A stretch of 64,000 nt of DNA from Nitrospira japonica (lineage in GTDB: Bacteria > Nitrospirota > Thermodesulfovibrionia > Thermodesulfovibrionales > SM23-35). Shown in pieces: positions 29,372 to 42,747 of the stretch. Within the stretch, counting starts at the first letter, position 1, and every line of letters starts with the position of its first letter. The position numbers and the translations under genes are program-made. Where the stretch lies: assembly GCA_020725385.1 (NCBI GenBank), contig DYFC01000010.1:33785-97784 (forward strand), given 5' to 3'. Under the pieces are notes generated by a model. That model did no database searches, was not told the origin of the DNA, and saw only the letters and a program-made list of their open reading frames with translations.

Positions 29372-29490
29372 CTGGCTTTTATACCAGTATATATTATCAG
29401 TCCTTAAGAGTAAAGTACCAAAGAGAGCAAAAAGCATAGATTAGTTTTCTACTTGGGAAGTAACTATTAAAGTATTTGAAAGGAAATTAT

Positions 29491-30729
29491 ATGAAAAAAA
29501 GTTATGCAACAAATGATAAACATATTGTTATAAATGAAAGATCTTTAGTTGCTGTAGAATTTACTATTGAATGGAAAAGTTTTTATGCCTGCCATACTGA
29601 CTGCTTCTATACAAGGAATCTTAATTTATGGAGAGATTTACTTCCAGAAAATATTCACAAATCACTTATAGGTAAATATTCGGAGCTGACACTTAATTTT
29701 CAGTGTAATGAATTTTTCAAATTCTGCGAATTCGATGATAATTTGCTTTTTGAGATAAACCAGAAGCAATTTGATAGAAAATGTTTTTTCCCTCTTGAAA
29801 TTGTTCCACAATCAGGCAGATTTTACCCTAAAGGAATTTTAAAAGGTCTCCAAAACATATTCAAAGGAAATCAGGAACCTTTTAGATGTGTTAGTTACGA
29901 TGAATCAAACATTATTGTTGACTTTAATCATCCGCTCTCGGGATTGCACCCAAAACTTTCTATGTTTATTCATGAGATTAGAACTAAATCAGGTGAAACA
30001 GGGGGAGAATGTACAGATTGGATCGAAACAATCATTAACGGTCCAGGAATGCAGGCTCGCTGGAATGAAACTCCAACAGATTTTTTCAAAGACAATCCTT
30101 TTTCAAGAACCGATGAAAATAACGATACGCTTTTTTACGAAAAACCTCGTTTTACATCACATGTAGATAAAAAAGCCCGGTCAATAATTTCAGGGATATA
30201 TGGAAATATCTTAAAAGACGGAATGAAAGTTCTTGACCTTATGAGTAGCTGGCAATCCCACGTGCCGGGGCATGTTGAACTCGATTCTTTGATAGGAATC
30301 GGGTTGAACAAAGAAGAGATGGAATTAAACTTTCAACTTAATGAACATATTGTCTATGATTTAAATCGAACCCCTGTTTTGCCTTTTAGAGACTCTGAAT
30401 TTGATTCTGTCATCTGCTCATTATCAATTGAATATCTAACAAAACCATTCGAAATTTTTAAGGAAATTGCAAGGATTTTGAAACCGGGTGGATATTTTAT
30501 TACAACATTTTCTAATAGATGGTTTCCGCCTAAGGTTATAAGAATATGGACAGAACTTTATGAGTTTGAACGAATGGGACTTGTTCTTGAATATTTCATA
30601 AGAACCGGTAAATTCAAAAATCTTCATACTTATTCAATGAGAGGACTTCCCAGAGCATGGGATGACAAATATTTCCCTGAGTTCCCTCTATCAGACCCTA
30701 TATATGCAGTATGGGGAATGAGAGGTTAA
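29491..30729 (+). CDS. Class I SAM-dependent methyltransferase with an FKBP-like N-terminal region
   Basis: VDFNHPLSG; VLDLMSSWQSH; ILKPGG...FSNRWFPPK. Confidence 0.78.
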   Translation: MKKSYATNDKHIVINERSLVAVEFTIEWKSFYACHTDCFYTRNLNLWRDLLPENIHKSLIGKYSELTLNFQCNEFFKFCEFDDNLLFEINQKQFDRKCFFPLEIVPQSGRFYPKGILKGLQNIFKGNQEPFRCVSYDESNIIVDFNHPLSGLHPKLSMFIHEIRTKSGETGGECTDWIETIINGPGMQARWNETPTDFFKDNPFSRTDENNDTLFYEKPRFTSHVDKKARSIISGIYGNILKDGMKVLDLMSSWQSHVPGHVELDSLIGIGLNKEEMELNFQLNEHIVYDLNRTPVLPFRDSEFDSVICSLSIEYLTKPFEIFKEIARILKPGGYFITTFSNRWFPPKVIRIWTELYEFERMGLVLEYFIRTGKFKNLHTYSMRGLPRAWDDKYFPEFPLSDPIYAVWGMRG

Positions 30730-31586: not shown

Positions 31587-32804
31587 TTATGCTTTTTGCT
31601 TCTTTTTCAAATAAAAAATTGCACCTATCCCGGCAATAAGCATAAAGATAAGCATTCCCCATTCTGTCATTGTTGGTATACTTAAAGGATTATTTAAAGG
31701 GTCTTGACAGGTACCATAGTGTATTGGTGTTGGTAATTCTTCTCCCGGAGGAACAGGTGTCTGGGATGTATCAACAGTGCCTGTTTGATTTGTAGCGAAT
31801 ACTAATGCTCCACCTGCATTCCATGCACTCGTACGCAAGTCAATATTTCCGATTGCATTAAAAGTTCCGCTTCCCTGTAAACTCATTGCTCCAAATACAA
31901 CAACTTCCTGACTTGTTGCAACTGTCAATTGTCCGGTAGTTGTTATCGCTACATTATAAGGTATAAAAAAGCAAGAAAAGGCACAGATTCCTTCAAATGA
32001 AGTGCCTGGTGGAAGTTCATATGTCCCATCGTTATTATAATCTCTTAATTCTGGATCACCTGCACATGAATTATCGCAGTTTGTATCAGCTTCAAGGACA
32101 CCATCATTGTCACAGTCTCTCAGAAACGGGCCAACATTCATAGGAGTTAGCATATTATTACCTGTACTAAAAGAAGGGACTGGATTAAAGATAGCATCTC
32201 GAGCATCAATAACTGTTGCAGCATGTGAGTAATCGAAGGCAAGTCCAATAAAAATAGCAATGGTACAGAATCTGTATAACATCTGTAGTGCTTTGTTTAA
32301 ACCTGCTTTTGCAAATTCTCTTCTGGTTGTCTGATCATTCATTACTCCCTCACCTGAACCACATCCTTCACAAGGAGGATTGTCGCCAGAACATGTATCA
32401 GACCCTGTACAATTATCAGTTGCACATACATCTGAGTATGTACACCCAGTAGTAACATCAATACGGCAAAGATCAATATTACAGCTTCCGGACTTATCCA
32501 AAGTACATATATCAGTATTACAGAATGGGCTTTGTTGATTTTGAATATCAAGTTTACATTTATCAATTCCGCATGCATTCGTTATGTCAACCTGGCATGA
32601 ATCCGCAGTAGTACAATAATCTTTACCACTACAGGTATCTGAAACAGTACATAAATCAGGATTACAACCATTAACAGCATAAGCATTTGTAGAAAACATT
32701 GTTGCATTAATTTTTCTCAGAGGCGGAAGTTCGGATACAACACCAATGGCTACCATTCCCCCTGTAACTCTATACAACCATCTCAAAAATTCCCTCCTTC
32801 TCAT
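31587..32804 (-). CDS. Twin-Arg Cys/Asp-repeat protein with C-terminal IPTL-CTERM sorting signal; putative rSAM substrate
   Basis: MRRREFL...AYA leader; 17 Cys in residues 47-148; SIPTMTEWG-TM-KKKQKA C-terminus; AGGAGG RBS 3 bp after the rSAM stop region. Confidence 0.8.
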   Translation of the reverse strand: MRRREFLRWLYRVTGGMVAIGVVSELPPLRKINATMFSTNAYAVNGCNPDLCTVSDTCSGKDYCTTADSCQVDITNACGIDKCKLDIQNQQSPFCNTDICTLDKSGSCNIDLCRIDVTTGCTYSDVCATDNCTGSDTCSGDNPPCEGCGSGEGVMNDQTTRREFAKAGLNKALQMLYRFCTIAIFIGLAFDYSHAATVIDARDAIFNPVPSFSTGNNMLTPMNVGPFLRDCDNDGVLEADTNCDNSCAGDPELRDYNNDGTYELPPGTSFEGICAFSCFFIPYNVAITTTGQLTVATSQEVVVFGAMSLQGSGTFNAIGNIDLRTSAWNAGGALVFATNQTGTVDTSQTPVPPGEELPTPIHYGTCQDPLNNPLSIPTMTEWGMLIFMLIAGIGAIFYLKKKQKA

Positions 32805-32807
32805 TAA

Positions 32808-34286
32808 CTATCCTCCTTTCTTATCTGCTATGAGATAAGGTTGTGTTGTTTCTTCATAAATATCACTTAAAATATCTTTATCGCTTACATTCAATTCTGA
32901 ATTTATAGCCATCGCACATTCTACCTGATGTTTAATTATTTTGCAACTCTTCTCACATGGAATTTCTATCGAATCATTAGTCATTAAAGCATGATGCCAG
33001 CATCCTCCACCACAAAAATATCTTACCCAGCAATCCTTGCAAGGTTGACGATTGTCTACTGATAGATTAAGTATTTTCTCCTGAAGTCTTAAATCCAGAC
33101 CATTTTCAATATCACCCATCCGGTAATCTTCCATACCTACAAAACGATGACAGGGATAAAATCCACCATCTTGTGACAATGCAAAATAAGTTCTAAAAGC
33201 CCCGCAGAAATAAGGACTGCGGTCTCTTACAATCCTTGTCATTCTAATAAACCTTACTAAATTTGTATAATTAAAATATCTGTTTTGTCTAACGCTATCA
33301 ACTAAATAAAGGGCAACTGTTTCAATCTGTTTTTTTATTTCCTCAATGTCTTCATCTGTTACTGTTAATTCTCCTGCTCCGGCAACAGATGGTTCGGTAT
33401 GAACTGAACCAAACCCAAGCGAAAGAAGATGGTCTACAACAAGTGGTATATTAACTGTTCCTCTTGGGATTGTAACTCTTGCAGGAACTCTATCAGGTCT
33501 TGCAGAGATAAGACGCTTTATTCCAGAAACGACAAGATCATATGAGCCTTTACCGTTAGGTAATATTCTGTTCAAATTATGTATTTCTTTTGGTCCATCT
33601 ATTGATATTTGACAACCAATATTGTTTTTAACAACAAAATCTACTACTTCGTCATTAAGAAGGATTCCATTGGTAACAAGAGACATACTAACTTTCTTTT
33701 CCATCTCTTTTTCCTTCTCTCTAACATAAGAAACTATTTCTTTTATGAGTCTAAATTCAAGGAGAGGTTCTCCCCCAAAGAAAATCAGACTTAAATCTTT
33801 ATGCTTTCCTGAATTATTAAAAAGAAAATCAACACCCTTCTTTGCTATATCAATTGACATGCTTTTTCTTTTCGCACCATATAAATAAGGCTGTTGCTCC
33901 CATTCCTGCATTCCGTGCGAGCCATAGCAGTAACGGCATCTCATATTGCAGTCATGTGTAACCATAAGTTCAAGATGCCTTAATCCATAGCGCTTTTTTA
34001 GTGGCGGAAGATCCCGAAAATCATTATCATTATTATCAAATATAAACTTTTCTTTTTTTAAATATTTCAAAACTTCTTTTATTTCCCATTTTGGATATTT
34101 ATCCTTTAAGGCTCTTAAGGGGTCAGCTTTATTATTTTTTTCAAGAAGCTTTACTATTTCACAAACCAGGGGAGTTACTTCATAGAAAAGCATTGTTTTG
34201 ACATTGAATAGGATATTCTTACCTAAACGATTGAAAAGGTAGTGTTCAACAATCTTATATTCAGTCTGTTTATTAAAGATACCCAT
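32808..34286 (-). CDS. Radical SAM/SPASM peptide maturase (CteB/QhpD/PapB-like) with an RRE-like N-terminus
   Basis: CNMRCRYC, FFGGEPLL, TNG, SIDG; SPASM CGA...YPCHRF...CKDCWVRYFCGGGC...C; ~100-aa N-terminal extension. Confidence 0.9.
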   Translation of the reverse strand: MGIFNKQTEYKIVEHYLFNRLGKNILFNVKTMLFYEVTPLVCEIVKLLEKNNKADPLRALKDKYPKWEIKEVLKYLKKEKFIFDNNDNDFRDLPPLKKRYGLRHLELMVTHDCNMRCRYCYGSHGMQEWEQQPYLYGAKRKSMSIDIAKKGVDFLFNNSGKHKDLSLIFFGGEPLLEFRLIKEIVSYVREKEKEMEKKVSMSLVTNGILLNDEVVDFVVKNNIGCQISIDGPKEIHNLNRILPNGKGSYDLVVSGIKRLISARPDRVPARVTIPRGTVNIPLVVDHLLSLGFGSVHTEPSVAGAGELTVTDEDIEEIKKQIETVALYLVDSVRQNRYFNYTNLVRFIRMTRIVRDRSPYFCGAFRTYFALSQDGGFYPCHRFVGMEDYRMGDIENGLDLRLQEKILNLSVDNRQPCKDCWVRYFCGGGCWHHALMTNDSIEIPCEKSCKIIKHQVECAMAINSELNVSDKDILSDIYEETTQPYLIADKKGG

Positions 34287-34305
34287 ATTCTTCAGGTTGA
34301 AATAT

Positions 34306-34334
34306 AATATAGCTATTTGACCTAACAAATTCAA
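34306..34334 (-). promoter_or_regulatory. Putative sigma70 promoter of the rSAM operon
   Basis: TTGAAT-17 bp-TATATT, ending about 20 bp before ATG 34286. Confidence 0.5.
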
Positions 34335-34647
34335 TTAAATAAATCAAGCAGGGGCAATTCATGAATTGCCCCTGCACAATCCGTTTCAATACATATAATT
34401 CCATGAATATGGTTAGGCATAATTATATATTCATCCAGTTCAATATCCGGAAATTGAACTGGAATTTCTATCCAATATTGTTGGGCAATTATCCCATACT
34501 CATTTAACTTCATCCTACTATTAATCACGTCCCCAAATAAATAATCCTTATTTTTGTGCATATTGGAATGAAATACGCTCCTGATTGTGAATAATTATAA
34601 CCTTTCAGCCGTATTGATTTTCTTTTATGAATATCTGGATTATACAC
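34331..34647 (-). pseudogene. Frameshifted, truncated RAYT (Y1/HUH transposase) copy
   Basis: Homologous to 38945-39484; one A missing near 34555; ends just after the GAIHELPL palindrome. Confidence 0.85.
34348..34375. repeat. 28-bp perfect palindrome (REP-like)
   Basis: GCAGGGGCAATTCATGAATTGCCCCTGC. Confidence 0.9.
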
Positions 34648-34855: not shown

Positions 34856-35077
34856 CTATTTCAAAAAGTCTATGAATTCATCTACAGTCAGTTTAGATTG
34901 TTCAATAATGCTATACAGTGTTCCTTTTTTTAAATCCCGTGAATGAACAGGAATAGTTACTCGCAAAGAGCCTTTTTTAAAAATCTTATGACTGCCTTTT
35001 TGTCTATGCTCTACAAAACCTGCCCTTTGAAGCGCCTTTATAACATCGCTGCTTTTAAGCGCTGGCAATCTGCTCAT
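34856..35077 (-). CDS. hicA: HicA-family toxin
   Basis: RQKGSH...VTIPVH...GTLYSII. Confidence 0.92.
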   Translation of the reverse strand: MSRLPALKSSDVIKALQRAGFVEHRQKGSHKIFKKGSLRVTIPVHSRDLKKGTLYSIIEQSKLTVDEFIDFLK

Positions 35078-35297
35078 ATGGGGATTCCACTTCTACAATA
35101 AGATGGTCTTCTTCCGGAATTGGAAGGCCATCGGCTTGCAGACTCTCAAGGTAAAGCGCTATGGCCTCTTTAATATTCGCCAATGCCTCGTCATAAGTAT
35201 CACCTTCAGATATACAGCCTGGCAAAGAAGGAACCGTTGCGGTATAGCCGCCTTCTTCCTGTGGCTCAAATATAACCTTATAATATTTTTTTGCCAT
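35055..35297 (-). CDS. hicB: HicB-family antitoxin
   Basis: GGYTATVPSLPGCISEGDT..EAL.NIKEAI. Confidence 0.92.
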   Translation of the reverse strand: MAKKYYKVIFEPQEEGGYTATVPSLPGCISEGDTYDEALANIKEAIALYLESLQADGLPIPEEDHLIVEVESPYEQIASA

Positions 35298-35559: not shown

Positions 35560-36012
35560 TCAAGATTTGAACATTAATAATTCATCAAGCAATTCGTTAG
35601 AAACATAAAAACCCTTATCTTTAAGTTCTTGAGCCTTTTTAAAAGCGCTCTCTATAAGTCCAAGTTTTTCGGCTTTTAACAAAACACCAATACTACCACT
35701 AATAGACAATCCTAAATCTTCTGCAACCTTTCGAGCTTTTAAATCATCAATTAATGCTCTAAAATTAGTCTCATAGGCAAGGGCTATAACCTCAGATTCA
35801 CCTCTTCCTAAGTTTAAATTACGCATTAAGACATTGATTAATCTGCTTTCAACCTTTCGCACTAATAAGCAATCAATATTGATTTCGCCAAATTCTTTGA
35901 CCACAGCATCAGGCAAAATAATCTCCTTATAGATTTTACAGAGAATTTGTAAGAGATCAATTCGTTCGAAGGCTATTAAAACAGAGGCATCAACAATGAC
36001 TGCTTCAGGCAT
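35560..36012 (-). CDS. PIN-domain DUF3368-family toxin
   Basis: IVDASVLI, LGRGESEVIALA, IDDLKAR, GSIGVL. Confidence 0.88.
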   Translation of the reverse strand: MPEAVIVDASVLIAFERIDLLQILCKIYKEIILPDAVVKEFGEINIDCLLVRKVESRLINVLMRNLNLGRGESEVIALAYETNFRALIDDLKARKVAEDLGLSISGSIGVLLKAEKLGLIESAFKKAQELKDKGFYVSNELLDELLMFKS

Positions 36013-36226
36013 TCGATAGTTCTTTCTCAAGATTCAGTTTTTGAAACTTTATTGGAGCTATCCCCTTATGCAGCAATATCTCAACAAATGCCTTTTCAGA
36101 ATACCCGGCTATCTCAGATGCTTTACCAAGAGATATTAAATCTTCGTCAAGAAGCTTTATGGCAAGCAATAGTTTTAATTCTTCTTCCGGTATATTTAGC
36201 TCAGGTATAGTTAGTGATTTGCCCAT
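36005..36226 (-). CDS. UPF0175-family antitoxin
   Basis: LAIKL...ISLGKASEIAG; overlaps the PIN gene. Confidence 0.85.
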   Translation of the reverse strand: MGKSLTIPELNIPEEELKLLLAIKLLDEDLISLGKASEIAGYSEKAFVEILLHKGIAPIKFQKLNLEKELSNA

Positions 36227-37409: not shown

Positions 37410-38495
37410 TTAACTCTTCTCCCATTCAAACCTCTTTTTTAGATCATTACAGTGACTATGAGGAATTTTATTGTCATGTTGGAGTCTGCCAACGACTATA
37501 CCAGCGGCGATACCGAGTTCAGAGGCGAATTTTTGTATAGCTGCCTTACTGTATCTTCCATTCCGTATGAATTGACTGTATTGTTTCGGCGGAATTAGAA
37601 AATCAGAGGCAAACCTGTCAGCCTTGTCTTCCTTGGAGTTATTAGCATCACACTCAATAAATACCTCTTTCTTTCCATGCATGAGTATATGACCTGCTTC
37701 ATGGAAGAAACTGAACCATAATTGATCGTCGCTTTTATAGCGAAGACTCAATTGAATGACAGCCTTGTTAGGATTTGTCCACCATGTCGCACCCGATGCC
37801 CTGATTCTAGGAATCTCAGGCACAAAGGCAACGGCAACACCTGCATCAGCACATAAACGAATAACTTCCTGTTGAAAGTGCTCAGGCGGTTTAACAGTAA
37901 GCTGACGGACATTTAAAAGCGCATTCTTGAACTTCGATGCATCAAAAGGCTTGCAACTGATATTCCGAGCTGTCAGTTCACCCATCCTAAGCCATGATGC
38001 AACAGCATAAGGGTCGTTTTGGAAAACTTTTGATGTTCGATAGGAAACCCGGGCGCCCATCCATCTTGTTTCCCATTGTTCAGGAGAAGCGACGCCAAAG
38101 AAATTTAAGACAGCTTGAAGCTGCTGAACCATGCCTGAATGTTTCTTAACCCAACCCATCTTGATAAGCACATTCAAAGGCATTTTCTTCAGCCAGTTTA
38201 TCTGCCGCTGCAACCTCTTTTGCTCATTTAGTCTTGCCAGTGTCTCCTGATAATTACGCTCCAGATTATTCCAGAAGCTTGCAGGAATACCGAGGACCCT
38301 TTCCAGTTGTAACGCAGTTTCCGGTGTTATAGCAGCCTTTCCCTTAATGATTTCATTAATTGTCTTCTTCGGTCTGCCTGTGCGTTCTGCAAGCTCTGCC
38401 TGAGACATTCCAATTGCTTCCATGGTTTCAAGAAGCGTTTCCCCGGGGGGCACAGCGTAATCAGGCATAAACTGATTTTTTATATTTTTACTCAT
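37410..38495 (-). CDS. higA: HigA-type HTH antitoxin fused to an ImmA/IrrE metallopeptidase domain
   Basis: PPGETL..HTH..ITPETALQLE..FWNNLE; FFHEAGH. Confidence 0.88.
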   Translation of the reverse strand: MSKNIKNQFMPDYAVPPGETLLETMEAIGMSQAELAERTGRPKKTINEIIKGKAAITPETALQLERVLGIPASFWNNLERNYQETLARLNEQKRLQRQINWLKKMPLNVLIKMGWVKKHSGMVQQLQAVLNFFGVASPEQWETRWMGARVSYRTSKVFQNDPYAVASWLRMGELTARNISCKPFDASKFKNALLNVRQLTVKPPEHFQQEVIRLCADAGVAVAFVPEIPRIRASGATWWTNPNKAVIQLSLRYKSDDQLWFSFFHEAGHILMHGKKEVFIECDANNSKEDKADRFASDFLIPPKQYSQFIRNGRYSKAAIQKFASELGIAAGIVVGRLQHDNKIPHSHCNDLKKRFEWEKS

Positions 38496-38826
38496 GTGTG
38501 TCCTCCACACCAATAATTTTAATTATCGTCACTTTAGTCCAATCAAGCCCTCCATCCAGCTTTTTGGGTATCGGGTTGTTTGCGGGCTCAAAAATAAGTC
38601 GATAAGGATAGTCAAGATCTACAGACAGTTGTCCTTTTCTATTTCCTTTCAATTCATGGCATCGAGCCTTGGGAAGATTGCGCAACTCTTCAAGCGCATT
38701 AGCAGCAGCAAATTCGACTAACCTTCTTTTTAAAAGCTTAGCTCTTTTAGTGCCGAATCTTTTAATCATAAGATTCTCATTGTTGCACTTTTTCTCAAGT
38801 TTGGTTGTCTTAAATAGAATAACCAC
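38488..38826 (-). CDS. higB: HigB/RelE-family toxin
   Basis: RCHELKGNRKGQLSVDL..PYRLIF; upstream of higA. Confidence 0.85.
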   Translation of the reverse strand: MVILFKTTKLEKKCNNENLMIKRFGTKRAKLLKRRLVEFAAANALEELRNLPKARCHELKGNRKGQLSVDLDYPYRLIFEPANNPIPKKLDGGLDWTKVTIIKIIGVEDTHE

Positions 38827-38879: not shown

Positions 38880-38945
38880 TTACACACTCTTTATCTCCTC
38901 AAGACCGTTCTTGACTAATTCACATACTGCCCAGTAAACTTCATT
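38880..38945 (-). repeat. Gene 3'-end repeat, copy 3 (NEVYWAVCELVKNGLEEIKSV*)
   Basis: Starts at the RAYT stop codon. Confidence 0.8.
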
Positions 38946-39484
38946 TAACTTTTATGAAGACCATAATATTCGTCCAATTCCCATTTCAAAGGATTGGTAA
39001 GAATATATTTCCTGATCGTGTTTAATTCTTGTTCATTTCGTATAATGTGTTCATAATAATTACGTTGCCAGACAGGATTGCTGCGTGTATTACGTATTTG
39101 GTTGATTTGTTTTGCGGATTGCATTTTAAACCACCCAATAATTTTTGGTAACAACATCTTTCTACGTTGTCTTTTATATTCATGTAGGGGCAATTCATGA
39201 ATTGCCCCTACAAAATTCGTTTCAATACATATAATTCCATGAACGTGGTTTGGCATCACAATAAATTCATCAATGGCCGTATTCGGAAAATGTCGTGGTA
39301 TTTTGTTCCAATATTGTTGTACAACGGTCCCCATAATATTTAATTGCATCTCCCCGTTGGTTATATCTCCAAACAAACATTCCCTGTCCTTTGTGCATAT
39401 CGTCACAAAATACGCCCCTGCCTGTGAATAATCATAACCTTTCAGGCGGATTGATCTTCTTTTATGAATGTCTGGATTATACAC
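38945..39484 (-). mobile_element. REP-associated tyrosine transposase (RAYT, Y1/HUH)
   Basis: RRSIRLKGYDYS..GAYFVTICT, MPNHVHG, WQRNYYEHIIR, YI..NP. Confidence 0.9.
39183..39212. repeat. 30-bp perfect GTAG-type palindrome inside the RAYT gene
   Basis: TGTAGGGGCAATTCATGAATTGCCCCTACA, encoding VGAIHELPL. Confidence 0.9.
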
Positions 39485-39768: not shown

Positions 39769-42747
39769 CTAAAGAACAGTTTCAAATTCTAATATCTGAT
39801 AGCCGGAGAGAAATTTTTTTCGTTTTGCTTTTATTTTTATTGTATCGCCTTCTTTTTTATCAAACATGAATATTTTTATATCATCTACATTTTCTATCTT
39901 CCATTCATTCAGTGAAAAAAGTATATCGCCTTTTCTCAATCCGGAGTTTTTTACTCTGCTACCGGGAATAATATCTTCTATTCGGACGCCTGAATCCGTT
40001 TCTTTTAAAATCAATCCGAGTTTTAATGTCGAAGGTGCGGGCAGTTGCTCCGTGAAAAGAATATAGTCTGCAATTTTTTTGTCTGTGTTTTCAGAGACAG
40101 GTATTAGAGTTACATAATCTTTACCGTTTATTCTTTTCAATCTGTTTGGTATTCCAGAGCCATACATTATATGACCAACCCCTGCAAGTATTACCATCTG
40201 ATAGTCCGGATTCTTTGCCATAAATTCAGCTGCGGTATGAGCCATTGTTTCATCCCATAAAATTTGTGACTGGACAAAATATTCAAAATTCCTGCTTTCA
40301 TGATTTCTGTGCGATGAAAAAACCTCTTTTAAAATTGATTTATAGTTTTCATCTGACATATCCATATTTTCAGGTATTTCCCTTTTTTCAATAAAGTCGA
40401 GGCCATCAATTCCTTCACGGGAAACTTTCTTGATTATTTCGGTCCATTGATTAAGGGCTATTACAGGAATTTTATTTGCCTTAGCATATTCCATTATTTC
40501 CCTGTAAAGATTGTAATCAAATTGCCACCTTTTATAATACTCGGAGGATTTAAGGAATTGTTTTTCACTTATAGTTCCTGAAAGATAGTCATTCAATGCC
40601 TTCTGAAATGGCCTCTGAAACATTTCCATTCCTATTGCTATTTTTCTTCCTCTTTCATGAAGCCCCATAATTATTTTTAGTTGTGTTTTATGGTCTTCGT
40701 AATTTTCATGTCTTTCTCCTACATATATCACGGGTTTAAATTTTATTTGCTCGATAATTTCATCTATATTCAAAGTTTTTTCAGGTTTTATACCTTTTAT
40801 CGAAATATCAAGCGGAAACCTTATTCCACGGGATGTTTCAACAATATCTTTCTGAATATTTTTACCATCTCCAAATTTGATAGAAGAATATTTCCCGTAA
40901 TGAAATATTTTTCTTGAAACAGAATCTGCTTCCTGTTTTGAATCTGCATAAGCTATCGCAATAACTTTTTCAGAATTCAATGGATTTTTTCTTATTTCAA
41001 GAGAAAAACCTTTGTCAAATTTTTTTATACTCCCAAATAATCTTTTTATTATTCTTCCTTCATCTGTAAATACCAGTACCGATGATGTTCTTAAATCTTC
41101 GTCATTAACATCTATTTCATCTTTTACAGAAAAATTTTGTTCTTTAAATATTTCTGTTAGAGTTTCGTATTTTTCTTTTCCCTCATCGGGTAAAACAATT
41201 AGCTTTTTATTATCTCCTATAAGTCTTGAGATTAAAGGGGGAAATTCATCCTCAGAAAATTTTCTCAAGATATCATAGTCCGGATCAATAACAAGTTCGG
41301 ATGGATTTCCTTCAACCTCTATATTGAAATTTTCTTTTGCTTTTTCGATATGCAACTTTTTTCTAAATGAGCCGTTTGCAGTTATAATTTCAACTGGCAC
41401 ATCAATTATATAAGGTTCTTCCTTTTGTATAATATTAAAGGTAACAGTTTGCTTACCATCGAGTATTTTTACAGATAAATTATTTATTTCAAACAAAGGC
41501 AAGCCTTTTCTATCAAGCCACTGAGAAAAAAACCCATCAAGATTTTTCCCGGAAGATTTTTCAAATGAGGATTTAATGTCATCCCATGAAACATTCTGAA
41601 AAGATTTTTCATTAATGATAACCTTTAGTGTATTAATAAACAAATCTTCACCAACAAGATTTTTAAGCATATGAAACACCATCGATGCCTTGCCATAGCC
41701 AATAGCTTTTGTCGCGAAATCTGTTCTTGATGTAAATTCCCTTAGGGTAATTTCTTTTTTAGGATCTACATAACTTAGAAAATCGGATATTATATTCTTT
41801 CTGTATTGCCACCCTTTTCCTTTTTGCTCTTCATATAAATGATCCGAAAGATAGGCTGTTAATCCTTCGGCCCAGTTTCCTTTCTTATAATCAATATAGA
41901 CATAATTTCCGAACCATTGATGGAGTATTTCATGTCCAAGAGCAGTCTCTGCAATAAATGGAAGACGTATGACATCCTGGCCGAGCAATGTAAATGTAGG
42001 CATTGAATATCCTGTGGATTGAAAATTCTCTACAACAGAAAAACGTTTGTATGGATATTCACCGAATAAATTTTTATATAACCGAATAAATTTTTTAGAA
42101 TACTCCATATATGTATTTGCAAGCTTTCCGTCTTCAGGGAAAAAATAAGCATAAAGCTGGATATTGTCTATTCTTTCTTTAAACTCTATATATTTGGCAG
42201 CCACAAATGTTATTTCATTAAGCGGATGTAAAAAGTAAAAGGAATATTCTTTGACGTTACCGTTACTTTTTACTTCTATTTCTTCAGCTTCTGATATAGC
42301 ACTGAAATCCACCGGTACTTTAGCCTTTAAATTAAAATAAGCCATACCATCGAAAACAGGGTACCACATACGTGTAAGGGAAATGCCTTTTCCGCCAATA
42401 ATGTTACTGCCAACAACTCCTGAATTTTGTAAATTTGAATTTTCCTGATAATCCGGGAAATAAGCATCGTAAACAATTTCGATAGAACTTTTACCCTTCA
42501 GGGTTATTGCTTTGAGATTTATATAATCAGGAATGTTTTCTCCATTGGTTTTTACTGAAATTATTTTGAGGTTACCAAAAGAAATAAGCAGGTCTTTTTC
42601 ATCCTGCGATGTGATAATAGCTTTACCACTGATAGTGGATTTATCAAGATCGAATGCTACAGACAGATTATATACAGGAAGTTTTTCTTCAGCAAAGCAG
42701 ATTGAAGAAGATAAAGCAAAAATCAGAGACAAAATAAAATATAACAC
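39769..42747 (-). CDS. Exported M1-type metallopeptidase fused to ChaN-like and PDZ domains
   Basis: HEILHQW...W.EG gluzincin motif; YVGERH...GMEMF...WDETMA...LAGVGH ChaN-like region; C-terminal PDZ (GLRKGD). Confidence 0.8.
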   Translation of the reverse strand: MLYFILSLIFALSSSICFAEEKLPVYNLSVAFDLDKSTISGKAIITSQDEKDLLISFGNLKIISVKTNGENIPDYINLKAITLKGKSSIEIVYDAYFPDYQENSNLQNSGVVGSNIIGGKGISLTRMWYPVFDGMAYFNLKAKVPVDFSAISEAEEIEVKSNGNVKEYSFYFLHPLNEITFVAAKYIEFKERIDNIQLYAYFFPEDGKLANTYMEYSKKFIRLYKNLFGEYPYKRFSVVENFQSTGYSMPTFTLLGQDVIRLPFIAETALGHEILHQWFGNYVYIDYKKGNWAEGLTAYLSDHLYEEQKGKGWQYRKNIISDFLSYVDPKKEITLREFTSRTDFATKAIGYGKASMVFHMLKNLVGEDLFINTLKVIINEKSFQNVSWDDIKSSFEKSSGKNLDGFFSQWLDRKGLPLFEINNLSVKILDGKQTVTFNIIQKEEPYIIDVPVEIITANGSFRKKLHIEKAKENFNIEVEGNPSELVIDPDYDILRKFSEDEFPPLISRLIGDNKKLIVLPDEGKEKYETLTEIFKEQNFSVKDEIDVNDEDLRTSSVLVFTDEGRIIKRLFGSIKKFDKGFSLEIRKNPLNSEKVIAIAYADSKQEADSVSRKIFHYGKYSSIKFGDGKNIQKDIVETSRGIRFPLDISIKGIKPEKTLNIDEIIEQIKFKPVIYVGERHENYEDHKTQLKIIMGLHERGRKIAIGMEMFQRPFQKALNDYLSGTISEKQFLKSSEYYKRWQFDYNLYREIMEYAKANKIPVIALNQWTEIIKKVSREGIDGLDFIEKREIPENMDMSDENYKSILKEVFSSHRNHESRNFEYFVQSQILWDETMAHTAAEFMAKNPDYQMVILAGVGHIMYGSGIPNRLKRINGKDYVTLIPVSENTDKKIADYILFTEQLPAPSTLKLGLILKETDSGVRIEDIIPGSRVKNSGLRKGDILFSLNEWKIENVDDIKIFMFDKKEGDTIKIKAKRKKFLSGYQILEFETVL

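Follow-up and report, generated by a model that had tools for sequence, protein, structure and literature searches.

A dense Cys/Asp-repeat protein paired with a radical SAM/SPASM enzyme: a candidate multiply thioether-linked surface protein of bacteria

A 64,000-nucleotide stretch of DNA from Nitrospira japonica (GenBank assembly GCA_020725385.1, contig DYFC01000010.1, positions 33,785 to 97,784; hereafter the window) carries a gene for a 405-amino-acid protein with a long array of Cys/Asp motifs. Directly upstream on the same strand lies a gene for a radical S-adenosylmethionine (SAM) enzyme with a SPASM region. The motif array, its conservation, the pairing of the two genes and the kinship of the enzyme with thioether-forming maturases were observed directly. 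The repeat protein is probably a protein-sized, exported substrate that bears many Cys-Asp thioether (ranthionine) rings made by the adjacent maturase, and the best reading of the two genes is a single operon for an enzymatically cross-linked protein. The maturase stop codon (TAG, 32808-32810) is located 3 nucleotides ahead of the substrate ATG. This short gap, together with an AAGGAGG sequence inside the end of the maturase gene, suggests translational coupling of both genes. Terminator-like hairpins are present on both sides of the pair, and no third conserved gene was found at the loci of the pair.

Cys/Asp repeats and the paired maturase

A preliminary description of this DNA had proposed ten CX2D and five CX3D motifs, each Asp paired with a Cys, followed by a closing CX3E motif. 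A script confirmed every position, with the CX2D Cys at residues 47, 70, 78, 83, 95, 100, 108, 113, 127 and 138 and the CX3D Cys at residues 52, 58, 64, 121 and 132. All 15 Asp of residues 47-141 lie three or four residues behind a Cys, and Cys148 and Glu152 form the CX3E motif. Only Cys145 is unpaired, with a Glu at +1 and no acidic residue at +3 or +4. The odd total of 17 Cys given earlier likewise holds for residues 47-148; the whole protein has 24. When residues 47-152 were shuffled 200,000 times, the mean number of paired Cys was 4.4 and the maximum was 12, and the observed 15 was never reached. There is no DNA-level tandem repeat in the window array, which indicates that the pattern is held at the protein level; among the relatives, a small 42-bp DNA tandem array is present at locus L006 only. 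The repeat region is also covered by contigs of three other studies, which have 0-1 differences from it and neither insertions nor deletions.

A database search yielded 35 relatives of the substrate, four with 66-78% identity and the others with 35-48%. The repeat region was delimited by a motif script in 28 of these 36 proteins, and eight were dropped because they had no match to the mid-motif pattern. Alignment of homologues for Cys-Asp covariation, which the preliminary description had named as a check, bore out the pairing: an Asp is present at +3 or +4 for 821 of 857 repeat-region Cys (96%). The 857 Cys comprise 713 in CX2D and 108 in CX3D motifs, 13 with Glu instead and 23 with neither, and Asp is found at +3 in 83% of cases. 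Counted from the acidic residue, 824 of 983 Asp are paired. Cys-Cys spacings (n=829) include 317 of eight, 304 of five and 104 of six residues. The close relatives P0001-P0005 have 15 to 23 Cys, with an acidic residue at +3 or +4 for 86 of 91, and most relatives display a 13-residue double unit, C-x-x-D-x-C-x-S-D-x-S-G-x.

The relatives also share the layout of the window protein. An N-terminal segment (R-R-x-F-L-x-W-L...G-G...P-L-x-R-I-N) is followed by a variable number of C-x2-3-D units, reaching up to ~55 motifs. Thereafter come a second segment (R-R-x-F-A-x-x-G-x-N-x-A-x-K-W-L-Y, a hydrophobic core and A-x-A) and a conserved C-terminal domain.

Pairing of enzyme and substrate was examined in both search directions. 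A search of genome contigs with the single protein gave no loci, and an alignment-based search gave 11. At seven of these, a full orthologue of the enzyme (40-59% identity) is encoded directly upstream on the same strand. At L006 the enzyme gene is 4.3 kb upstream on the same contig, and at L015, where the contig begins inside the substrate gene, the enzyme is found on a 3.2-kb contig of the same genome. At L010, which lies at a contig end, no enzyme was detected in that genome at E<=1e-20. At L016, half of the enzyme is fused in frame to the substrate C-terminal domain. This 386-amino-acid open reading frame (ORF; L016:5281-6441), from a Desulfobacteraceae metagenome-assembled genome (MAG), joins maturase residues 18-261 to substrate residues 222-363. 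It represents either what a deletion left behind or a collapse of the assembly over the repeats.

Searching with the enzyme instead gave 80 loci, 17 of them at >=40% enzyme identity, including four whose contigs are shared with the protein-first set. A same-strand downstream ORF with 19-50 CX2-3D motifs is present at 15 of the 17, and both exceptions are cut short: the L109 flank stops before the genes known from L006, and L111 ends 196 nucleotides past the enzyme match. At the 63 loci whose enzymes are <=36% identical, no ORF exceeds six motifs. The pairing is therefore conserved in both directions, and across several phyla. Record titles or tree placement name at least five: Nitrospirota, Thermodesulfobacteriota, Acidobacteriota, Hydrogenedentota and Myxococcota. 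Titles also name Thermodesulfovibrionales, Brocadiaceae, Syntrophorhabdus, Syntrophobacter, Syntrophaceae, Desulfovibrio, Desulfobacteraceae, Desulfobulbaceae, 'Deltaproteobacteria' and a betaproteobacterium. Judged by name, most of these hosts are presumably anaerobic groups. In the source genome (96.6% complete), neither DsbB nor VKOR was found, and there is one weak match to a DsbA fold. The source organism is a bacterium of Nitrospirota/Thermodesulfovibrionales type, and its MetRS shares 90% identity with the MetRS of a Nitrospirae MAG.

As a separate observation, ORFs of 51-110 amino acids with four to six CX2-3D motifs occur near distant radical SAM enzymes (29-34% identity) at six loci (L123:5130-5333, L125:288-473, L127:2222-2410, L130:2928-3257, L150:3097-3327 and L155:5224-5406), and one such short ORF is from a Thermococcus MAG. 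By their motifs, the six look like freyrasin-type ranthipeptide precursors.

The maturase has Pfam matches to Radical_SAM and Fer4_12, and its Pfam SPASM score (17.4 bits) is under the 21.5 cut-off. It has both the CX3CX2C motif and the SPASM auxiliary-cluster Cys of PapB-family maturases. The closest solved structure is CteB (5wgg, E 4e-70), to which maturase residues 32-479 align; the N-terminal part of CteB is a leader-binding (RRE-type) domain. Of 65 matched NCBIfam models, none reaches its curated cut-off. The scores are 303.9 bits for the SCIFF maturase model (TIGR03974, the highest; cut-off 425), 294.8 for the PapB family over residues 120-457 (NF047865; 340), 290.8 for the nif11-type maturase (518.7), 253.1 for QhpD (TIGR03906; 453), 142.5 for the CXXX-repeat maturase (TIGR04115; 350) and 103 for the CrpC-type model (TIGR04463; 525). 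The top models are all thioether-forming maturases.

A quick maximum-likelihood tree of 49 enzyme rows was built, with Shimodaira-Hasegawa-like approximate likelihood ratio test (SH-aLRT) support only. Fourteen enzymes of this type form a clade of their own (SH-aLRT 99). For nine of them, that of the window included, a repeat protein is encoded alongside, nearby or elsewhere in the genome, and the remaining five are database proteins without gene context, one of which is identical to that of L013. The clade is nested in a 41-row group (SH-aLRT 95) with PapB-, QhpD- and nif11-type rows, and the SCIFF rows fall outside; these rows, and the representatives used below, are labelled by hidden Markov model score and are distinct from the characterised enzymes.

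An earlier study (PMC10288494) gives six 'catalytic site proximity' positions on CteB (F112, F152, T186, S210, H363 and Q364). They correspond to Y137, F186, V220, S244, H396 and R397 in the window maturase and to Y-F-(S/V)-S-H-R in its clade. PapB-family and QhpD-family representatives have Y-F-T-S-H-R, and two of three SCIFF representatives have F-F-T-S-H-Q (the third, P0090, ends in R). At five of six positions, the window maturase thus looks like the Asp/Glu-directed ranthisynthases, yet it belongs to none of the named families. Taken together, the Cys-Asp conservation and the conserved radical SAM/SPASM pairing support the PapB-like thioether reading advanced in the preliminary description, so far as sequence comparison can.

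Protein architecture and genomic surroundings

Outside the repeats, the substrate has two signal-like segments, a C-terminal domain and a tail (Table 1). In the N-terminal segment, R4, F6, G15, G16, P28, L29 and N33 are invariant in the family alignment, and the segment is a candidate leader for the maturase and/or a candidate signal of the twin-arginine translocation (Tat) type. The second segment is conserved in two family alignments. A Tat-like motif can be seen by eye in both, as RRREFLRW with A-Y-A and as TRREFAK with S-H-A, and TatC is encoded in the source genome. The two segments are also related to each other as profiles (hhalign score 27.3, probability 85.8, 19 columns), with control scores of at most 13.0 in 60 column shuffles and 11.4 for a reversed profile. 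The second segment is the more hydrophobic (family mean Kyte-Doolittle value over 12 residues of 2.32, versus 1.45 for the N-terminal segment), and it looks like a cleavable signal with its positive end towards the repeats. If it acts as a signal, the repeats would stay inside the cell; if export is instead directed by the N-terminal segment, the second one has to traverse the membrane.

Forms that consist of repeats without the C-terminal domain are encoded beside the enzyme at L006, L010, L008, L112, L120 and L121. They retain the N-terminal segment and often the W-L-Y motif as well, which speaks for a repeat module that is dealt with on its own and, in the long forms, is joined to a surface protein. 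These repeat-only forms have 262-449 amino acids, and no stand-alone relative of residues 1-180 shorter than 222 amino acids was found. An internal start at Met155, where an ATG ahead of the second RR motif follows a GAGGGAG-like stretch (as also in two Brocadiaceae loci), was considered as well. A conserved internal start is unsupported: the position is Ala (GCG) in L013 and Leu in distant homologues, and the motif search was unsuccessful for 5 of the 10 genes examined.

Two CX2D motifs within residues 230-250 of the C-terminal domain (32057-32116), Cys231-Asp234 and Cys247-Asp250, are invariant, suggesting that the maturase might act there as well. The tail accounts for the sole NCBIfam match of the substrate, a weak one, and scores below the IPTL-CTERM cut-offs of both Pfam (PF18203, 17.7 versus 20.8 bits) and NCBIfam (TIGR04174, 16.0 versus 20.5). 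Because 12 of the 41 members have a PF18203 match at E<=0.01, the window tail is probably a divergent IPTL-CTERM member. Similar tails are found on other proteins of the source genome (C37:71463-71558, C48:6504-6599 and C19:32809-33012) and in relatives of the genus, which suggests a shared sorting system. No Pfam family was matched on the window substrate, and none of the 41 members has a Pfam repeat family or a Pfam family on the C-terminal domain. The Pfam domains that do occur on the 41 members are all surface types: IPTL-CTERM (12), TIG (3), CARDB (2), Flg_new_2 (2), and fn3, dockerin and Kre9_KNH (one each).

An AlphaFold2 model built with 41 sequences has a mean value of 70.9 in the predicted form of the local distance difference test (pLDDT). 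Residues 201-350 are predicted to be beta-rich (10-residue-block mean pLDDT 87-97), and helices are placed at residues 3-22, 161-189 and 381-404. Short strands recur every 13-17 residues in the repeats, giving a beta-solenoid-like form at low confidence; the preliminary description had envisaged a rigid rod for this segment. Foldseek returned no match at E<=0.001. The best VIA-align Z is 6.9 (bactofilin, on the low-confidence repeats), and matches to the C-terminal domain have Z values of 4-5.3. All these matches are beta-solenoids; a Z below 8 possibly reflects a generic match. Comparison of the substrate with PDB sequences gave nothing below E 0.017. The ESM Atlas offered no usable match for the C-terminal domain, and for the repeat module its nearest clusters are CXXX-repeat targets (0.84, below the 0.9 lead threshold).

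Genes adjoining the operon encode CinA-like, methyltransferase, toxin-antitoxin and transposase-fragment products. For the maturase itself, an ATG at 34286 (Met17) is an alternative to the listed TTG and the more likely start, given that alignment with homologues begins only near residue 20. The gene pair is probably mobile between lineages, since it is absent from relatives, lies beside toxin-antitoxin genes and transposase fragments, and marks a point at which contigs diverge upstream of the enzyme. The repeat protein was absent from all 40 relatives of the same genus, family or order, five of which match the C-terminal tail only. GC content is unremarkable, though (0.36-0.37, versus 0.30-0.41 nearby), with no composition anomaly pointing to horizontal transfer.

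The toxin-antitoxin-type cluster comprises HicA and HicB, a DUF3368 protein, and a HigB-like toxin with an HTH/Peptidase_M78 protein (34856-35297, 35560-36030 and 37410-38826). The match between the window and contigs from three other runs breaks off a short way upstream of the maturase gene, where the contigs have loose ends (34342-34350). A 12-pair palindrome (34348-34375) is located at this divergence point, which may be a boundary of variable DNA. A 76-amino-acid ORF fragment (34331-34561, minus strand; ending ...MPNHIHGI...) resembles the N-terminus of an IS200/RAYT-type transposase, and a second Y1 transposase-like ORF is located at 38945-39484. Farther away, a 992-amino-acid protein (39769-42747, minus strand) combines Peptidase_M1, ChaN-type haem-binding (Cofac_haem_bdg) and C-terminal PDZ domains in an unusual fusion. 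On the other side, a 417-amino-acid protein (29476-30729, plus strand) has a methyltransferase domain confined to its last ~120 residues, and its first ~280 residues have no Pfam or NCBIfam match.

Table 1. Positions of the substrate and maturase features in the window
Feature	Positions	Strand	Basis or content
Substrate gene, 405-amino-acid Cys/Asp-repeat protein	31587..32804	-	ORF list; 35 homologues besides itself
N-terminal segment, residues 1-46	32667..32804	-	RR-E-F-L-R-W, moderately hydrophobic Gly-rich stretch, P-L-R-K-I-N, A-Y-A
Repeat region, residues 47-152	32349..32666	-	10 CX2D, 5 CX3D, 1 CX3E, Cys145 unpaired
Second signal-like segment, residues 155-195	32220..32342	-	T-R-R-E-F-A-K, amphipathic stretch to L-Y-R, 12-residue hydrophobic core, S-H-A
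C-terminal domain, residues 196-372	31689..32219	-	beta-rich, Asp-rich D-x-D-x-D-G-like loops, invariant columns
Sorting-signal-like tail, residues 376-405	31590..31679	-	I-P-T-M-T-E-W-G, hydrophobic helix, K-K-K-Q-K-A
Terminator-like hairpin, 11-pair stem and T-run, 23 nucleotides past the substrate stop codon	31535..31564	-	consensus scan only
Shine-Dalgarno AAGGAGG, 7 nucleotides before the substrate ATG, within the last codons of the maturase gene	32812..32818	-	
Radical SAM/SPASM maturase gene, 508 amino acids from the listed TTG start	32808..34334	-	ORF list, Pfam, NCBIfam
N-terminal maturase domain, residues ~32-118, aligned with the CteB N-terminal domain	33981..34241	-	phmmer to 5wgg_A from chain residue 8
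CX3CX2C (Cys129, Cys133, Cys136) for the SAM-binding [4Fe-4S] cluster	33927..33950	-	invariant, 16-sequence alignment
SPASM region, seven Cys (377, 395, 432, 435, 441, 445, 464)	32943..33206	-	invariant, 16-sequence alignment

Proposed mechanism and competing explanations

From the precedents of PapB and CrpC, we infer that the maturase staples each C-x2-3-D unit of the substrate. The enzyme would bind the conserved N-terminal segment in the cytoplasm. At each unit, SAM would be cleaved to a 5'-deoxyadenosyl radical, which would abstract a hydrogen from the Asp beta-carbon, and this carbon would be bonded to the sulfur of the Cys that precedes the Asp by three or four residues, with a loss of 2 Da per link. 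The expected product would have up to 15-16 small consecutive rings in the window protein and up to ~55 in its relatives, leaving a polyanionic, redox-insensitive stapled segment. Export would follow modification, with a Tat-type route suggested by the RR motifs, and the end state would be a cell-surface protein by virtue of the C-terminal domain and the IPTL-like tail. For hosts of this kind, in which DsbB and VKOR were not found, covalent staples introduced in the cytoplasm ahead of export would be fitting.

Several observations weigh against this scheme. Asp is also present at -2 (D-x-C) for 10 of the 17 Cys in the window array, and this spacing is retained in five of the five CX3D units, so that the Cys-Asp connectivity is not fixed by sequence alone. 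Across the family, 744 of 857 Cys (87%) have an Asp at -2 or -5 (D-x-C or D-x4-C), and 418 of 857 have D-x-C alone. The pairing of Cys(i) with Asp(i+3/4) is the most consistent register, though D-x-C is also regular. A further 159 of the 983 family Asp are unpaired, and the alignment includes a few repeats of relatives in which Cys has been replaced and Asp retained, which makes a structural or cation-binding role for Asp also possible. The repeats are modelled at low confidence (10-residue-block mean pLDDT 34-58). Because the maturase reaches no curated cut-off, its reaction is extrapolated from relatives. Tat-signal profiles (PF10518/TIGR01409) match neither RR segment, even at E<=10. Finally, the positive charges before the hydrophobic core of the second segment and the A-x-A after it mean that the repeats might remain cytoplasmic, which would undercut the rationale of a disulfide surrogate outside the cell.

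Some of these points would fit a maturase that modifies the same repeats by another chemistry or connectivity, such as sactionine formation (S-to-alpha-carbon), D-x-C links, another acceptor, or partial or heterogeneous modification. We consider this unlikely, even though the enzyme stands in its own clade under all curated cut-offs, has Ser or Val at proximity position 3 where the PapB, QhpD and SCIFF rows have Thr, and is paired with a family in which D-x-C recurs as described above. Some sactisynthases resemble ranthisynthases over their full length, according to PMC10288494, and PMC13692751 describes CrpA as modified heterogeneously, also at non-acidic acceptors. Against such chemistry stand the +3/+4 register (96% versus 87%) and the five of six proximity positions shared with representatives of the PapB and QhpD families, for which Asp or Glu is the target. 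In addition, Cys precedes the acceptor in both PapA and CrpA, as reported in PMC9413430 and PMC13692751.

The topology of the protein leads to a different proposal, namely that the repeats stay in the cytoplasm as an N-terminal extension ahead of a signal or anchor inside the chain. They would there form a domain for regulation or for metal binding through thiols and carboxylates, with or without cross-links, and only the C-terminal domain would be exported. The second RR segment resembles a canonical signal in its positive residues, 12-residue core and A-x-A, besides being the more hydrophobic of the two, and the conservation of G15, G16, P28, L29 and N33 in the N-terminal segment is sequence-specific, as for a recognition sequence rather than a plain signal. 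This arrangement is nonetheless rather improbable, given that the repeat-only forms at L006, L010, L008, L112 and L121 keep the N-terminal RR segment, as would suit an independently exported module, and that there is no evident reason for dozens of staples in such a domain. We hold it to be still more doubtful, indeed very improbable, that the repeats form an ordinary disulfide-bonded and/or cation-binding beta-solenoid, similar to insect antifreeze proteins or Asp-rich Ca-binding repeats, with the enzyme acting elsewhere or at few sites. The short periodic strands predicted by AlphaFold would be compatible with a solenoid, as would the best fold matches, which are beta-helices and include the Cys-rich insect antifreeze protein 1m8n (Z 5.0), although all have Z<8 and derive from a low-confidence model. 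Asp that sometimes stays where Cys is lost, and the Asp-rich loops of the C-terminal domain, point the same way. Against a plain solenoid stands the enzyme-substrate pairing, which is conserved whichever partner the search starts from, with no further gene conserved beside the two. That neither DsbB nor VKOR was found in the source genome, and that no Pfam repeat family is matched in the 41 members, also count against it. The odd number of Cys, which the preliminary description had held against disulfides, extends to 19 of 28 homologues, but the argument is weak because some of these sequences are truncated.

Comparison with known systems

Known cases of Cys-to-Asp thioethers made by enzymes are short peptides (freyrasin) and a single enzyme subunit (QHNDH). 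It was in 2026 that an entire repeat protein, one from an archaeon, was first shown to carry thioether staples (PMC13692751). The family described here would extend stapled repeat proteins to bacteria of at least five phyla and would add far denser motif arrays, on proteins with surface-protein domains. No description of the enzyme clade, of a protein-sized multi-motif substrate of this kind or of the double signal-like architecture was found in the profile libraries or literature searched. It is conceivable, and we put it forward tentatively, that this is the first sighting of widespread bacterial exported 'poly-ranthionine' proteins. Such proteins would be made by a dedicated radical SAM clade, carry 15 to ~55 Cys-Asp rings as a reduction-proof substitute for disulfides in the surface proteins of bacteria from oxygen-free settings, and have two homologous RR-signal-like segments bracketing the module and an unusual route to the surface. 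If so, that route might involve a Tat-type signal inside the chain, or the splitting of a polyprotein into two parts that are both exported. With two genes and no accessory genes, the system is simple and testable. It bears on how a radical SAM enzyme handles dozens of sites per chain, on whether thioether staples take the place of disulfides where oxygen is absent, and on the membrane passage of cross-linked protein. A processive enzyme making four- and five-residue rings could also serve peptide stapling.

PapA, the substrate of PapB, is a short peptide. As set out in PMC9413430, it has six CX3D/E motifs, and PapB joins Cys sulfur to the Asp beta-carbon with full conversion of CX1-5D. The window system resembles PapA/PapB in that its radical SAM/SPASM enzyme is of the same broad group, with a PapB-family representative sharing five of six proximity positions, and in that its substrate has consecutive Cys-Xn-Asp motifs with Cys first. 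It differs in that the enzyme scores under the 340-bit PapB cut-off and stands in a separate clade. The window substrate, moreover, is not a short leader-core peptide but a 405-amino-acid multi-domain protein with 15 motifs, mainly CX2D, together with signal-like segments, a folded C-terminal domain and a sorting tail.

QHNDH is periplasmic and carries Cys-to-Asp/Glu thioethers, of which QhpC has three, not a long tandem array. PMC13692751 cites QHNDH as a protein with modifications like those of peptides that are made by ribosomes and modified after translation (RiPPs). The QhpD model is among the best matches of the window maturase, and a QhpD-family representative shares the same five of six proximity positions. 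In contrast, the QhpD score is below its cut-off of 453, and no amine dehydrogenase genes are located near the window operon.

The CrpA/CrpC system of Methanococcus voltae offers a functional parallel at the scale of a protein. PMC13692751 describes a predicted RRE-RS-SPASM architecture for CrpC, which installs ranthionines on a 29-kDa repeat protein at C-X-X-Q/D motifs with Cys before the acceptor. CrpA repeats are likewise predicted as a low-confidence beta-helix, which its authors doubt (PMC13692751). Both systems combine a SPASM radical SAM enzyme, with a predicted RRE, and a protein-sized, Cys-rich repeat substrate. The likeness is functional only, with the window maturase scoring 103 bits on TIGR04463 (cut-off 525), and the substrates are unrelated in sequence. 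CrpA has ten copies of a 17-residue repeat with Cys at the C-terminal end (PMC13692751). The window units are 5-8 residues long (a 13-residue double unit in relatives), and they occur in bacterial hosts on proteins with signal-like segments and surface domains. Six taxon names taken from the first loci, Brocadia, Syntrophorhabdus, Thermodesulfovibrio, Desulfo-, Nitrospir- and Syntrophobacter, are absent from the two spreadsheets of PMC13692751.

Two further groups show partial likeness. The top-scoring model and the most similar solved structure both come from SCIFF/CteB (PDB 5wgg/5why), which shares the three-domain layout. The window maturase nevertheless lies outside the SCIFF rows in the tree and has Y and R rather than F and Q at proximity positions 1 and 6, and its substrate is a 405-amino-acid repeat protein, not a 45-residue peptide with six Cys. 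The CXXX-repeat targets (PF27846/TIGR04115) are also Cys repeat-rich targets of SPASM radical SAM enzymes and are nearest by language-model features. In contrast, PF27846 is unmatched by the window substrate or its 40 relatives, and the window motif is Cys plus Asp, not CXXX. The type of chemistry is known, and the scheme proposed for the window operon would extend the theme of PapA/PapB, QhpC/QhpD and CrpA/CrpC.

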